A stretch of 63,294 nucleotides of DNA, filler included, from Anaerolineae bacterium (lineage in GTDB: Bacteria; Chloroflexota; Anaerolineae; Epilineales; Epilineaceae), in assembly GCA_029262755.1 (NCBI GenBank). It is 6 parts of 6 records of this genome, joined end to end, with 100 filler letters (N's around TTAATTAATTAA, not from the genome) between each part and the next. Parts side by side here need not be neighbours in the genome. Positions count along the whole stretch, not along the records: positions 49,066 to 57,357 come from JAJCYU010000221.1; 5 more parts are not named here. One strand, given 5' to 3'. A program made the position numbers. Shown here one piece after another: positions 51,001-54,000 of the stretch (within the stretch, counting starts at the first letter, position 1; every line of letters starts with the position of its first letter).

Positions 51001-54000
51001 GGTTGGAGGTCGATTCACCGGATTCCGAGGAGCCGGGCTGGATCGAGGCGACCAACGTGCAGTGCATCGCGCCGCTCTCTGCGGTGCCCATCATCGACCA
51101 GGCCTACCTGGCGCCGGCAACGCCGACGCCCATCGCCGTCTCCGCGAGCTTCGGGCTTGCGGAAGGCGAGATCGATTCCGGCAAATGCACCATGCTGCGC
51201 TGGGACGTGCCGGTCGGCAGCCAGATCTCGGTGGACGGCAAGCTCATGCCCGGCAAGGGCTTCCAGTCCGTCTGCCCCGACGTCACGACGAGCTACACCC
51301 TGCGCTGGATCGACGCGTCGGGCGCCGCGAAGGAGCGACGCGTAACCGTGGTGGTCAACGAGGTCGTCGCCCAGGTAGCGCAAGCCGAGGCGGACGCGGC
51401 GGGCGATAGCGGTTCGAGCGGCGGCTTGGGCGGCCTACTCGACCCCGACTCACCCGAGCCGGAACCCACGATCTGTGTCGGCGACGAATGCGAGGTCGTG
51501 CTGCCCACCGCGCAGCCGACCCGAACGCGCCGCCCGCGCCCAACCAAGGAACCGACCGACCCGCCCGCCGCGCCGGAGCCCACGGATCCGCCCGCCGGCC
51601 CCGCGCCGACGGAACCGCCTGCCGGCCCGCAGCCGACATCGCCACCAGCAACGAACCCGCCGGCAACGGCCACGCTCGGCGCCACCGCGACGATCACCGT
51701 CACGGCACCGGTCACGTCGACCGCGACGGCGACTTCAACGGCCACGTTGACGCCGGAAGGCCCGCCCGCACCGACGGAGACACCGCTGCCGACGGAGCCG
51801 CCCGCTACGGCCACGCTCGAGGCGCCGACGGCAACGCCGGAGCCCGAGCCGACGGCCATCCCCGAGCCCGTTCCGACCGCGACACCGCTGAGCGGCGCGG
51901 AGGCCGGGGTTCGCTAGCACGAACGCAGTACAGCGTGACCGCAAGAGCGATAGCAATCACGAGGCGCCCCTCCGAAGAGGGGCGCCTCGCTCGTTCCTGC
52001 GCGGACTCAGGGCCGTCGTGGAGGGTCGCGTGGTGGGTCGTTCGCGTTTTCAGAGGGGGCGGACAACGATCGTGATCGCGCGGCCGGTGCACGTTCACCT
52101 GGAGAAGGACGCGCTACGCCTTCACGCGGGCGCGACGGCTTCACACGGGTGAGACGGCTTCACACGGGTGCTGCCGAGGATGGGGCGTTCCTTGCCCCGG
52201 CCACGGCTGACTGCGCAGGGCAGCCGGGGCCGTGAAGCGTCGAGCACCGGCCAGCACACGTCCCGGCGAGCGCGAATCCCAACGATCTACGCGCAGCCCT
52301 GGCATGGCGACGACCGCCCTTCCGACGCGGGCCCCGACCCCGATGTGACGGGGCGGCAACCTGGGGCCGATCCTGTGCAAACGAGAACGCGCCCCCTTCG
52401 CAGGGGGCGCGTCTCCTGATTCTTGCTTCGTCCTACGTGCTCGCGTCGACCTTGGCGGTATGTGAAGCCACCGCACCCAGCCGGGTTGCGAGCCTAGAGC
52501 TCGTGGTTAGCCAACACGAGCGGCATGTAGTTGTAGAACTTCGCGGCGGGCGTCGGCGGATCCGGATCCGGATTGGACGGACGCTCGGTCCACTCGATGG
52601 TGCTGCTGCCGCAGTCGAAGGTCAGGGCGTCGGGGAATCCCTCAGCCAAGTAGTCGCCTTCGGCCTTGATCATGTCGGAACCTTCCGTTGCGCCGGTGAA
52701 GGTCAGCTTGACCTCACCCGTCGCGTCGGACGTGCCCGTGATCGTCTCGCCCGCGTGCGGGCCGCTATCCACCACGATGGTGACTTCCGCGTCCGGTGCA
52801 GCCTTGCCGTCGGCACGGACCAACGTCGTGAGCGTCACGCTGTCGCCGATGTACAACGCGGTCGAGGCGGGCGTCATCCCGCAGGACATGACCGGCGCAA
52901 CTGGTTCCGGCGTTTCGACTATGGGCGGATCGCCCATGATGGCCTTGACTGCGCCGGCGTAGTCGCGGCCCTCATCGGTCTCAAACTCGACCATCGCGAC
53001 CATCTGCAGCTTGCCGAAGTCCGTTGCAACCTCGGTGGTGAACTCGGACTCAAGGCGAACCTTCTGGCCGGGCTCGACGACGTCCTCGAAGTCCATCCAG
53101 TCGATGATGCGCATCAGCTTGTGGAGGTGGATCGCCTCTGGATCGTTATGCTCGTAGCCGATGATCCCAAGCGAACCGCCGTTCTCCCACGGGTCGAACA
53201 CGTCCTTGCCTGTGTTCTCTACATCGACCGTGACGGTGACCTTGTTGAGAGCCGAGCGCTTGAACCATGCGTCGACCTTCATCGTCGGGGCCATGGCTTC
53301 GCCCTCGCTGATCCAATCGTTGAACAAACCGCGCCATGCGTCTGGCGACGTACCGCCGGGGGCGCCGGCCTGGTTTGCGAACTTGCCGCCCTGGGCGATC
53401 ATGAACGGCAATGTGCTCGCGCTGGGGATGACCTCACGCAGGCGGTTCATACGCGTTCGCGTATTGGGCGCCTGCTGCGTGCCGTTGGGGTCCGTGGGGT
53501 CCACGTTCGATTCAATGAAGAACACGTTGTCGACACCATCTCGCTCGAATTCCTGCTCCATCTGCCTGATGACCGGACCGGCCGTCGCGCAGATGCCTCA
53601 GGTGGAGCGTCCGTACATCTCGATAATGACCAGCGACTTCTCGCTCTGCGTAGCCGGCGACGCGGCGGTCGGGGAGGTCAAAACCATCCCCCCGATCATC
53701 GCAACAGCCAAGCCGGCAGCGAGTGCCCGCATATGGCGCATGAACCATCCTCCTTGCATAGTGCTACCCGTCGACGCGTCAATGATCCTCCGCAAATCTT
53801 TTGGGGAGGCCATTGGGCAGTGTACGGCAGCAGATTCGGACTGTCAACGGGGTAGAACGGCCTAACCGCAGGGAACGTGACCCTATCGCGTAGTCCTAGT
53901 ACTCGGGCGCATTGAATGTTCAGGGCAGGAGGGCGCCGATGCGCCGTCGATGTGGTTCGCAGAGCTGAGGGAATAGCAGCGCTATTGCCGAAGAATTGCG

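Follow-up and report, generated by a model that had tools for sequence, protein, structure and literature searches.

We found that a gene in the genome of an Anaerolineae bacterium (assembly GCA_029262755.1) contains an internal TGA which, judging from comparison with its relatives, almost certainly encodes selenocysteine (Sec). The gene is located on contig C221 (JAJCYU010000221.1), within the window, i.e., the whole 63,294-nucleotide stretch of DNA that was analyzed. Our overall explanation, which we hold with a probability of roughly 0.8, is that this gene codes for an exported selenoprotein with a UxxC motif in a thioredoxin fold, and that the protein represents a branch of the Omp28/HBP35/DUF1223 group. 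Its features are listed in Table 1.

Table 1. Features of the selenoprotein gene and its neighbor, with positions counted along the window.
Feature	Position	Strand	Basis or remark
Complete CDS, 415 codons, TGA read as Sec	52497..53741	(-)	Homologues align across the TGA
Stop codon TAG	52494-52496	(-)	
Shine-Dalgarno sequence AGGAGG	53749..53754	(-)	7 nt 5' of the ATG at 53741; direct reading
Signal-peptide-like N-terminus, residues ~1-28 (MRHMR, hydrophobic core, TAAS/P)	53658..53741	(-)	Read by eye
Sec codon UGA, codon 48, opening U-G-I-C	53598..53600 (contig 4533-4535)	(-)	
SECIS-like stem-loop	53559..53595	(-)	MFE -30.2 kcal/mol, covariation, codon bias
Lower stem CAUCUGC/GCAGAUG	53589-53595 and 53559-53565	(-)	
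Conserved upper hairpin, loop G-U-C	53568-53586	(-)	Begins 11 nt after the UGA
Predicted thioredoxin-fold domain, residues ~38-148, beta-alpha-beta-alpha-beta-beta-alpha	53298..53630	(-)	AlphaFold2, profile
Predicted seven-stranded beta-sandwich, residues ~154-266, conserved V-T-N motif	52944..53282	(-)	Model, fold matches
Putative extra Ig-like domain, residues ~290-361, orthologue-specific	52659..52874	(-)	Big_1, sub-threshold
Pro-rich linker and C-terminal tail ...KFYNYMPLVLANHEL	52497..52577	(-)	P407 invariant
Adjacent Cys-form paralogue, 295 aa, CIVC at the Sec column	54110..54994	(-)	Homology, no hairpin

The gene and its in-frame UGA

Genes of this kind are commonly truncated by gene callers, and translation table 11 splits this one into a 71-aa ORF ending at the TGA and a 355-aa ORF starting at M61. 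The first-pass annotation had proposed instead a single gene read through a Sec-UGA, with a Shine-Dalgarno sequence and ATG upstream, and this proposal was borne out. The TGA is the only one in the 415-codon frame. A purine-rich Shine-Dalgarno sequence preceded an ATG located 44-55 codons 5' of the TGA in each of the 19 homologues with an assignable start, and a signal-peptide-like layout, also judged by eye, was likewise present in the homologues, consistent with the signal peptide claimed earlier. An independent contig with ~96% identity kept the TGA; of the 21 in-gene differences, 19 fell on third codon positions (4 of 5 for the part 5' of the TGA). Just upstream of the ATG, the same contig had two 1-nt insertions (53793 and 53796), which argues against a start farther upstream. 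Five family genes terminate in TGA, so this codon is also used as a stop, and genome-wide TGA recoding (table 4 or 25) was ruled out on this ground.

The shared TGA had been noted in 9 genes of 6 genomes; its occurrence proved far wider. Among 25 full-length matches from 15 genomes of the window's own GTDB family, 23 had exactly one TGA, always at the same column of the motif F-E-x-F-x-R-x-x-U-x-x-C. Two genes of genome G200 and one of G031 had it at this column as well. The upstream DNA of further relatives, which could not be read in the earlier work, had the TGA at every one of the 53 additional loci that were read, namely 14 of 14 loci on genome contigs (7 of them from Acidobacteriota) and 39 of 39 metagenome loci, counts that are biased towards Sec forms because the peptide patterns used for fetching ([IS]Cx[AT]AGPVVD and similar) overlap the hairpin region. 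The search for these loci used an alignment of 8 sequences beginning after the Sec column, and all the above sets may overlap. A Cys at the Sec column had been described for the adjacent paralogue, and we found it there as well as in one gene of genome G008 (CGNC); in addition, 30 library representatives had CxxC at this column. The window protein and the adjacent paralogue showed 27% identity (E 7e-24) in an alignment spanning the U/C column.

If the TGA were a true stop, the locus would be a split or decaying gene, or would yield a 355-residue product from Met61 devoid of both signal peptide and active site. That is the outcome of standard gene calling, and a public protein collection has the 355-aa form (P0035). 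We consider such a stop very improbable, since one TGA column is shared by dozens of genes in two phyla and aligns with a catalytic Cys, the upstream Shine-Dalgarno sequence, ATG and signal peptide are conserved, and the bias towards third-position substitutions extends to the region 5' of the TGA. Moreover, strand 1 of the modelled fold and the beginning of its helix 1 would be missing from the Met61 product, and both a SECIS-like hairpin and Sec machinery are present, as described below.

SECIS-like hairpin and selenocysteine machinery

Just 3' of the UGA we found a stem-loop with G/U in its apical loop, as is characteristic of bacterial selenoprotein genes. The 8-bp upper hairpin had previously been credited with compensatory changes in 4 of 8 pairs in 9 sequences; with 31 sequences (29 distinct), changes on both sides were seen in 5 of 8 pairs, and 89.2% of cells were paired, versus at most 67% when the partner was slid. 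The observed pairing score was reached by none of 500 shuffles, a statistic that overstates support because the sequences are related and the hairpin overlaps conserved Ala-Gly-Pro codons. The same helix was found by RNAalifold unaided, and the window's own 74-nt stretch alone gave a fold z-score of -2.06 (MFE -30.2 kcal/mol). The Gly codon in the loop was GGT in 28 of the 31 genes; elsewhere in 19 of these genes, GGT accounted for 64 of 521 Gly codons (12.3%). Pairing was also kept in members with other residues at the loop (SGPEI, AGGVL, ASSVL and AGRSL). Conversely, the reported lack of the hairpin in Cys forms held for the two Cys-form DNAs that served as controls, despite retention of A-G-P in both. 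The genome's own selD is itself a UGA gene, and its hairpin likewise begins 11 nt after the UGA. An Rfam scan of positions 53450-53700 gave no SECIS family, the sole match being a chance snoRNA (E 3.7); bacterial SECIS elements are diverse, and this miss is therefore uninformative.

The genome contains the Sec machinery attributed to it (tRNA-Sec, selA, selB and selD). All components scored over their cut-offs: tRNA-Sec at 70.3 bits, SelB at 344.5, SelA at 507.7 and SelD at 368.1. Within the same GTDB family, 13 of 17 genomes had a SelB above the cut-off. The sole near-complete genome of this family that lacked SelB, G001 (97% complete), also lacked a family member; TGA forms with no SelB over the cut-off were found in G006 and G011, which are 69% and 64% complete, respectively. 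In Acidobacteriota, SelB was present in 5 of 5 genomes tested. From this comparative evidence, SelB with Sec-tRNA(Sec) would recognize the stem-loop downstream of UGA-48 and direct Sec insertion, giving rise to a 415-residue preprotein.

Predicted fold, function and kinship

The first-pass annotation had assigned the UxxC motif to a thioredoxin fold, with U48 opening helix 1 and a beta-sandwich following, in a model with a pLDDT of 61. Our AlphaFold2 model reproduced this arrangement with a pLDDT of 92.4 and a pTM of 0.88. The predicted structure had the topology of thioredoxin folds, the CxxC-type motif at helix 1, with Sec48 at the N-end of this helix, and a Pro just before strand 3 (Pro112) that is invariant in the family. 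The resolving Cys was invariant among UxxC members, and in the alignment of the family profile with WCGPC thioredoxins (E 6e-5), U fell on their first Cys. The candidate Ig-like domain was matched by Big_1 at E 2.4e-4 (21.6 bits versus a cut-off of 34.9) and is missing from most homologues.

By its sequence, the preprotein would be exported by the N-terminal signal peptide and probably held at the cell surface by a stalk rich in Pro and Thr and a short [YF]-[LM]-P tail at its C-terminus. Within this Anaerolineales-type genome, many exported proteins have this type of tail, in which Pro407 is invariant across the family; it was found in 69 ORFs. The fold suggests that Sec48 acts as the attacking nucleophile and Cys51 as the resolving residue, with Pro112 at the position of the cis-proline in thioredoxin folds, and that the thioredoxin domain packs against the beta-sandwich as in HBP35 and DUF1223 proteins. 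Such a protein may carry out thiol-disulfide exchange (reduction or isomerization) on extracytoplasmic substrates via a selenenylsulfide intermediate. On the basis of the model, the protein is probably an exported thioredoxin-like enzyme, a thiol-disulfide oxidoreductase at the cell surface.

The HBP35 and 2axo structures named earlier as best folds were again found with the better model. Over the two-domain fold, HBP35 of Porphyromonas gingivalis (5y1a) had a Z-score of 18.9 and the DUF1223 structure 2axo, from Agrobacterium, a Z-score of 14.9, with the next match at ~8; the Omp28 domain 2r2c scored 7.4. HBP35, like the window protein, has a thioredoxin-like domain and a beta-sandwich (215 residues aligned, rmsd 2.9; Foldseek E 1.1e-9 with the window model), but identity was 13% and HBP35 is a Cys protein without Sec in the outer membrane of a member of the Bacteroidota. 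It binds haemin, is sorted by the T9SS and has reported thioredoxin activity. Similarly, 2axo resembled the window model over both domains (197 residues aligned), whereas PF06764 (DUF1223) gave only weak matches in 7 of 21 family members (best E 8e-4), none reaching the gathering score of 30.7 bits, and no match for the window protein.

The similarity to HBP35 bears on function, because the top structural match is thus a haemin-binding protein. The product could be a real selenoprotein other than a disulfide oxidoreductase, which would bind metal, chalcogen or haem through its U/C pair or serve as a peroxidase-like scavenger. Some observations fit this possibility. For example, no conserved redox partner gene (CcdA/DsbD or thioredoxin reductase) or operon was found at C221 and seven other loci, where 74 of 92 called ORFs were scanned and those shorter than ~130 aa or overlapping were mostly dropped. 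The window joins six contigs, with C221 at 49066-57357, and genes past 57357 were rejected as neighbors. The G200 genes lie within a few kb of genes for a heavy-metal P-type ATPase, a ZIP transporter and a TerB protein, although such a metal-gene neighborhood was seen at this one locus only. In addition, 18 of 51 library members covering the Sec column had GxxC, SxxC or CxxS motifs, so that the same two-residue chemistry is impossible for some relatives. We nevertheless regard a function outside disulfide exchange as distinctly unlikely, given the canonical thioredoxin active-site geometry of the model, the Pro before strand 3, the invariant resolving Cys and the thioredoxin activity reported for HBP35 itself.

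Other exported UxxC thioredoxin-fold selenoproteins (DsbA-like, DsbG-like, thiol:disulfide interchange protein and TlpA/ResA-like) share the likely chemistry and location of the putative oxidoreductase, and the ResA and DsbE structures match its thioredoxin domain (Z ~7). They differ in having neither the appended beta-sandwich nor the stalk and tail, and their models do not match the window protein.

With regard to novelty, scans of the window protein against Pfam and NCBIfam (June 2026) gave no model reaching its cut-off, in agreement with the earlier searches. The previous description as a new family thus stands with respect to sequence models; by fold it does not, as the protein belongs with HBP35, Omp28 and DUF1223. 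Divergent members had sub-threshold matches to Omp28 models, which did not match the window protein: L073 to NF033782, lipoprot_Omp28 (39.7 bits, cut-off 150), and L068 to PF11551, Omp28 (23.8 bits, E 4e-5, cut-off 34.9). Given these matches and the whole-fold match to HBP35 and DUF1223, we regard the proteins as a new branch, at family level, within the known thioredoxin-like group of Omp28, HBP35 and DUF1223, and one for which no sequence model currently exists.

The closest described selenoprotein is GOS_C, a bacterial UxxC selenoprotein with a thioredoxin-like fold published in 2008 and represented by NF045500 (Zhang and Gladyshev 2008; PMC2398784; PMC13188914). GOS_C and the window protein have this motif and fold in common, as well as a SECIS-like hairpin after the UGA, and Cys homologues are common. 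The window family could accordingly be a divergent part of this Omp28-related selenoprotein family, in which case its novelty would be an annotation gap only. The Z-scores for HBP35 and 2r2c and the L068 match to Omp28 are in line with such an origin. Furthermore, a member from G031 matched NF033782 (E 3e-10), NF045500 (E 3.5e-9) and the 5y1a sequence (E 3.5e-4), a G200 member matched NF045500 (E 0.003), and the Cys paralogue had atlas leads only below 0.9, which pointed to clusters of Omp28 and DUF1223 (0.86-0.88). On the other hand, NF045500 had no match at E<=10 to the window protein or its whole genome, was over its cut-off in 0 of 401 genomes of the phylum, and gave 36.5 bits, versus a cut-off of 200, for the best family member. 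Identity to solved relatives was 13%, and a profile built from the family itself retrieves 599 clusters (50% identity). The window family also differs from GOS_C in taxa (Anaerolineae and Holophagae), in its C-terminal parts, with a PT stalk and C-terminal tail or fusions to FG-GAP repeats, and in the flanking motif F-E-x-F-x-R-x-x-U-x-I-C-x-x-A-G-P. Inclusion in GOS_C is therefore possible but unlikely, and we favor a separate branch of the Omp28/HBP35/DUF1223 group.

In literature searches, no paper was found that ties DUF1223 to selenoproteins, and none that pairs a selenoprotein with Omp28. Titles and abstract openings held nothing relevant on Anaerolineae selenoproteins, and members could be contained in supplementary lists of selenoproteomes.

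Distribution, annotation and wider significance

The family was found in Anaerolineae and in Holophagae (Acidobacteriota). At E<=1e-3, its profile matched the above 599 library clusters, compared with 355 in the first-pass annotation. Public calls are mostly truncated, as had been stated: 99 of the best 150 clusters, comparable to the earlier 96 of 149, start after the Sec column, i.e., two thirds of the best public relatives were called without signal peptide and active site. A profile search for homologous proteins gave 9 proteins, none of which was named by a source. A Sec-aware family model would mend hundreds of gene calls in metagenome-assembled genomes of Anaerolineae and Acidobacteriota.

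A broader interpretation, which we offer tentatively, is that these proteins form an abundant selenoenzyme family of their own, with ~600 clusters at 50% identity of which two thirds escape annotation. The family may function as a cell-surface Sec redox catalyst in Anaerolineae and Holophagae, and in Chloroflexota may be tethered by an undescribed C-terminal sorting tag. The candidate tag has the form [ILV]-[YFW]-L-P-x-x-x-[RK], follows a Pro/Thr stalk and would be shared by ~70 exported proteins per genome; literature on Chloroflexi sorting signals, as judged from listings, contained nothing on a C-terminal tail. If true, this would mean a selenoprotein family that is new and, with it, a way into a protein-sorting system not known so far.

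The prokaryotic selenoprotein catalogue comprises 119 families or subfamilies (2026 review), to which one family would be added. Because neither the chemistry nor the way in which the UGA is recoded departs from convention, the advance is an incremental and not a conceptual one. A single site varies naturally among U, C, G and S, which offers material for studies of Sec/Cys exchange. If the modelled fold is correct, the functionally obscure Omp28/HBP35/DUF1223 group would be tied to a catalytic UxxC site, and exported Sec-dependent redox chemistry would extend to the filamentous Chloroflexota, common inhabitants of biofilms, sludge and sediments.

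A single in-frame TGA at a shared column

The gene under study (52497-53741) begins with an ATG preceded, across a 7-nt spacer, by AGGAGG, and its frame runs for 415 codons to a TAG stop with a single in-frame TGA at codon 48. Translation with table 11 yields instead two ORFs, one of 71 aa that terminates at the TGA and one of 355 aa that starts at Met61, and it is in the 355-aa form (P0035) that the protein is present in the public protein collection. The TGA is flanked by the sequence E-M-Y-G-R-S-T-U-G-I-C-A-T-A-G-P; judged by eye, the N-terminus (MRHMR, a hydrophobic core and TAAS/P) looks like a signal peptide.

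Because the window concatenates separate contigs (C212, C215, C216, C221, C233 and C240), genes before 49066 or after 57357 are not neighbors of this gene. A Pro/Thr-rich ORF on the same contig had no match in Pfam. The order ClpB, unknown ORF, family pair and GH88 was repeated in genome G002 and partly in G004. Tandem pairs were usual for the family (G002:C44, G003:C423, G004:C14, G005:C22, G013:C104, G014:C68, G200:C9, G031:C170 and window 52497-54994), and the partners were diverged subtypes, e.g., F-E-M-F-G-R and F-E-F-F-E-R in genus g2; in the pair of the window one copy was a Cys form.

Coordinates of the gene under study, its contig and the joins of the window
Feature	Position	Strand	Remark
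Contig C221	49066-57357		home of the gene under study
709-aa Pro/Thr-rich ORF	49788-51917	+	downstream of the gene under study
TAG stop	52494-52496	-
Gene under study	52497-53741	-	415 codons
C-terminal tail	52497-52577	-	of the gene under study
TGA, codon 48	53598-53600	-
Start ATG	53741	-
AGGAGG	53749-53754	-
Cys paralogue	54110-54994		neighbor of the gene under study
GH88 hydrolase	55343-56998	-	long Thr/Ala-rich N-terminal region; upstream of the Cys paralogue
ClpB fragment	C221		neighbor of the gene under study
tRNA-Ala	C221		neighbor of the gene under study
100-base gap	20787-20886		between joined contigs
100-base gap	37868-37967		between joined contigs
100-base gap	48966-49065		between joined contigs
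100-base gap	57358-57457		between joined contigs
100-base gap	60256-60355		between joined contigs

The adjacent Cys paralogue was 27% identical to the window protein (E 7e-24), and the alignment crossed the TGA column, where the paralogue has CIVC. Within the window's GTDB family (17 genomes), a family profile built from 21 sequences matched 25 genes at full length, spread over 15 genomes; exactly one TGA was present in 23 of these genes and none in the other two, and inspection of all 23 placed the TGA in one shared column. In the first set of 21 family genes, 19 were Sec forms, and in each of the 17 with an assignable ATG the stretch 44-55 codons 5' of the TGA provided both an MRR-type signal peptide and a Shine-Dalgarno sequence. 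Since five family genes use TGA as terminator, it is not a general sense codon. The same profile matched none of 18 genomes from the order's four other families, and in an even sample of 401 phylum genomes additions came only from G200 (two tandem genes, a TGA in each) and G031 (one gene with a confirmed TGA, besides a second match outside that count), the other matches being short thioredoxins. Scans of one genome per species and of metagenomes, both with an eight-sequence alignment that begins past the Sec column, revealed TGA at the column in 14 of 14 loci (7 Anaerolineales/Anaerolineae and 7 Acidobacteriota/Holophagae) and in 39 of 39 loci, respectively, counts biased towards Sec forms by search patterns that extend into the hairpin; the GTDB-family, phylum, species and metagenome sets possibly overlap. 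An in-frame TGA at one column within one gene, as proposed in the first-pass annotation, was borne out by the 23 family genes and by both scans.

A metagenome contig from an independent strain (~96% identical, low depth of about 3), spanning 53140-53863, also kept the TGA. With codon phase assigned by hand, 19 of 21 in-gene differences fell at third codon positions, including 4 of the 5 located 5' of the TGA, and 1-nt insertions were found at 53793 and 53796, a short way 5' of the ATG.

Probable recoding hairpin and Sec machinery

The 74 nt from the UGA of the window gene fold into a single extended stem-loop (-30.2 kcal/mol, z -2.06, equaled by 6 of 200 shuffles) with a CAUCUGC/GCAGAUG lower stem and an upper hairpin that starts 11 nt past the UGA and carries a G-U-C loop. 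RNAalifold predicted the same 8-bp upper hairpin unprompted from 19 Sec genes, in which 91.9% of cells were paired, compared with at most 65% when the 3' partner was slid, and four pairs had both-sided changes. In an extended set of 31 Sec genes (29 distinct sequences, including G200, G031 and seven Acidobacteriota, with two genes of a UxxS subgroup omitted), 89.2% of cells were paired, five of eight pairs had both-sided changes, and the covariation score was matched by none of 500 shuffles. The helix overlies Ala-Gly-Pro codons and could be a mere by-product of them. This explanation is argued against by the Cys forms (two DNAs), which retain A-G-P with codons that disrupt the helix, by members that keep the pairing with S-G-P-E-I, A-G-G-V-L, A-S-S-V-L or A-G-R-S-L, and by the loop Gly codon: 28 of 31 genes use GGT there, while GGT accounts for 64 of 521 Gly codons (12.3%) elsewhere in 19 of them.

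The E. coli fdhF element requires an 11-nt spacing and G-U in the apical loop. The selD gene of the window's genome (L017, G000:C109:4931-5866) is also interrupted by TGA, and its G+C-rich hairpin starts 11 nt past the UGA, a spacing identical to that in 52497-53741. An Rfam scan returned no family matching the hairpin. In the UxxS subgroup (L038, G005:C166; L070, G014:C19), a different 7-bp hairpin with a G-U-C loop was located 9 nt further downstream. These two genes read R-S-E-S-G-G-U-x-x-S and may be either UxxS with a longer preceding loop or SxxU with Sec as the resolving residue.

All four Sec components were found in the window's genome (84% complete): tRNA-Sec (70.3 bits, gathering score 47), SelB (344.5 bits), SelA (507.7) and SelD (368.1). 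SelB was above cut-off in 13 of 17 genomes of the GTDB family and in all five Acidobacteriota genomes tested. Neither SelB nor a family member was found in G001 (97% complete), and G007 (65% complete) lacked SelB and a full-length member. TGA forms were present in G006 (69% complete) and G011 (64% complete), where no SelB was above cut-off. Among PDB sequences the family profile matched thioredoxins (best E 6.4e-5), and U fell opposite the leading Cys of their WCGPC motif. Hairpin covariation, the machinery and this alignment support the earlier reading of the TGA as Sec-encoding, and comparison across homologues shows 52497-53741 to be a predicted UGA-Sec gene with a SECIS element and the required machinery.

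Fold, family boundaries and mis-annotation

An AlphaFold2 model of residues 34-271, computed with the 21-sequence alignment (pLDDT 92.4, pTM 0.88), consists of a beta-alpha-beta-alpha-beta-beta-alpha thioredoxin fold, with U at the N-end of helix 1 and the invariant Pro112 directly preceding strand 3, followed by a seven-stranded beta-sandwich. The modeled structure matched HBP35 (5y1a; Foldseek E 1.1e-9, Z 18.9, 215 aligned residues, rmsd 2.9) and the DUF1223 protein 2axo (E 8.6e-9, Z 14.9, 197 aligned residues) over both domains; the next structure had a Z of only 8.2. The window protein had no Pfam or NCBIfam match above cut-off, its best being Big_1 (residues 300-361, sub-threshold) and Thioredoxin (E 0.13). 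Weak matches were observed for other members: DUF1223 for 7 of 21 (best E 8e-4), Omp28 PF11551 for L068 (E 4e-5), and NF033782 (E 3e-10, 39.7 bits, cut-off 150) and NF045500 (E 3.5e-9, 36.5 bits, cut-off 200) for the G031 member, which also matched the 5y1a sequence (E 3.5e-4). A 2026 review of prokaryotic selenoproteins gives NF045500 (Omp28_seleno) as the UxxC "hypothetical protein GOS_C" (PMC13188914). The first report of that protein, from ocean metagenomes in 2008 (PMC2398784), assigned it a Trx-like fold and counted 74 sequences with Sec and 312 with Cys. NF045500 was above cut-off in none of the 401 phylum genomes.

The claim of a new family holds in that no sequence model covers it, and is narrowed in that by fold the family goes with Omp28, HBP35 and DUF1223. 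UxxC selenoproteins with a Trx fold are already a known kind, and the structural group of the family already contains one selenoprotein branch; the novelty is at the family level, with no covering sequence model, new taxa and architecture, and widespread mis-calling.

Searched against 1.84 billion representatives, the profile retrieved 599 clusters (50% identity) with E<=1e-3; the number fell to 325 when E<=1e-10 was required and to 187 with E<=1e-30. Among the best 150 of the 599, 99 begin past the Sec column, within the first 10 residues, in keeping with the suspected wide mis-calling; the 51 that span it comprise 30 CxxC, 11 GxxC, 5 CxxS, 2 SxxC and 3 other forms. None of 9 close proteins in a 5.8-billion collection was named. 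Library proteins such as P0025, P0028, P0033 and P0037 exemplify the GxxC, CxxS and SxxC forms. The Gly at the Sec column of the GxxC proteins is an apparent one; GGA is one step from TGA. In Holophagae/Acidobacteriota (L093, L096-L100, L102), the Sec-bearing two-domain module was fused to extra parts: in some an N-terminal domain of ~250 residues with no family match, in others a C-terminal addition, either five FG-GAP repeats (E 6e-27) or a long unassigned region.

C-terminal tail and proposed function

In the window's genome, 69 ORFs end in a tail, [ILV]-[YFW]-L-P-x-x-x-[RK], placed 4-12 residues before the end after a Pro/Thr-rich linker. Of the 249 ORFs whose C-end is PT-rich, 69 (28%) carried it, versus 1.7% of all ORFs of at least 120 aa, and a rough test assigned a signal-peptide-like N-terminus to 55 of these 69 ORFs versus 33% of other long ORFs. 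The same tail type terminates family members L072, L085, L073, L086, L059, L068 and L070, and was absent from the Acidobacteriota/Holophagae homologues examined. The tail is not long enough to cross a membrane; it resembles a Chloroflexota tag for sorting or anchoring that has so far gone undescribed, and among the papers listed for sorting signals in Chloroflexi none was seen to deal with it.

No conserved CcdA/DsbD-type or other redox gene was found near family members in the neighborhoods examined. By analogy with HBP35, the window protein may have an alternative role in ligand binding. In the proposed redox mechanism, the protein would be exported and tethered by its stalk and tail, Sec48 of the surface-exposed thioredoxin-fold domain would attack a substrate disulfide or sulfenic group, Cys51 would resolve the selenenylsulfide, and the beta-sandwich may serve as a support or binding module.
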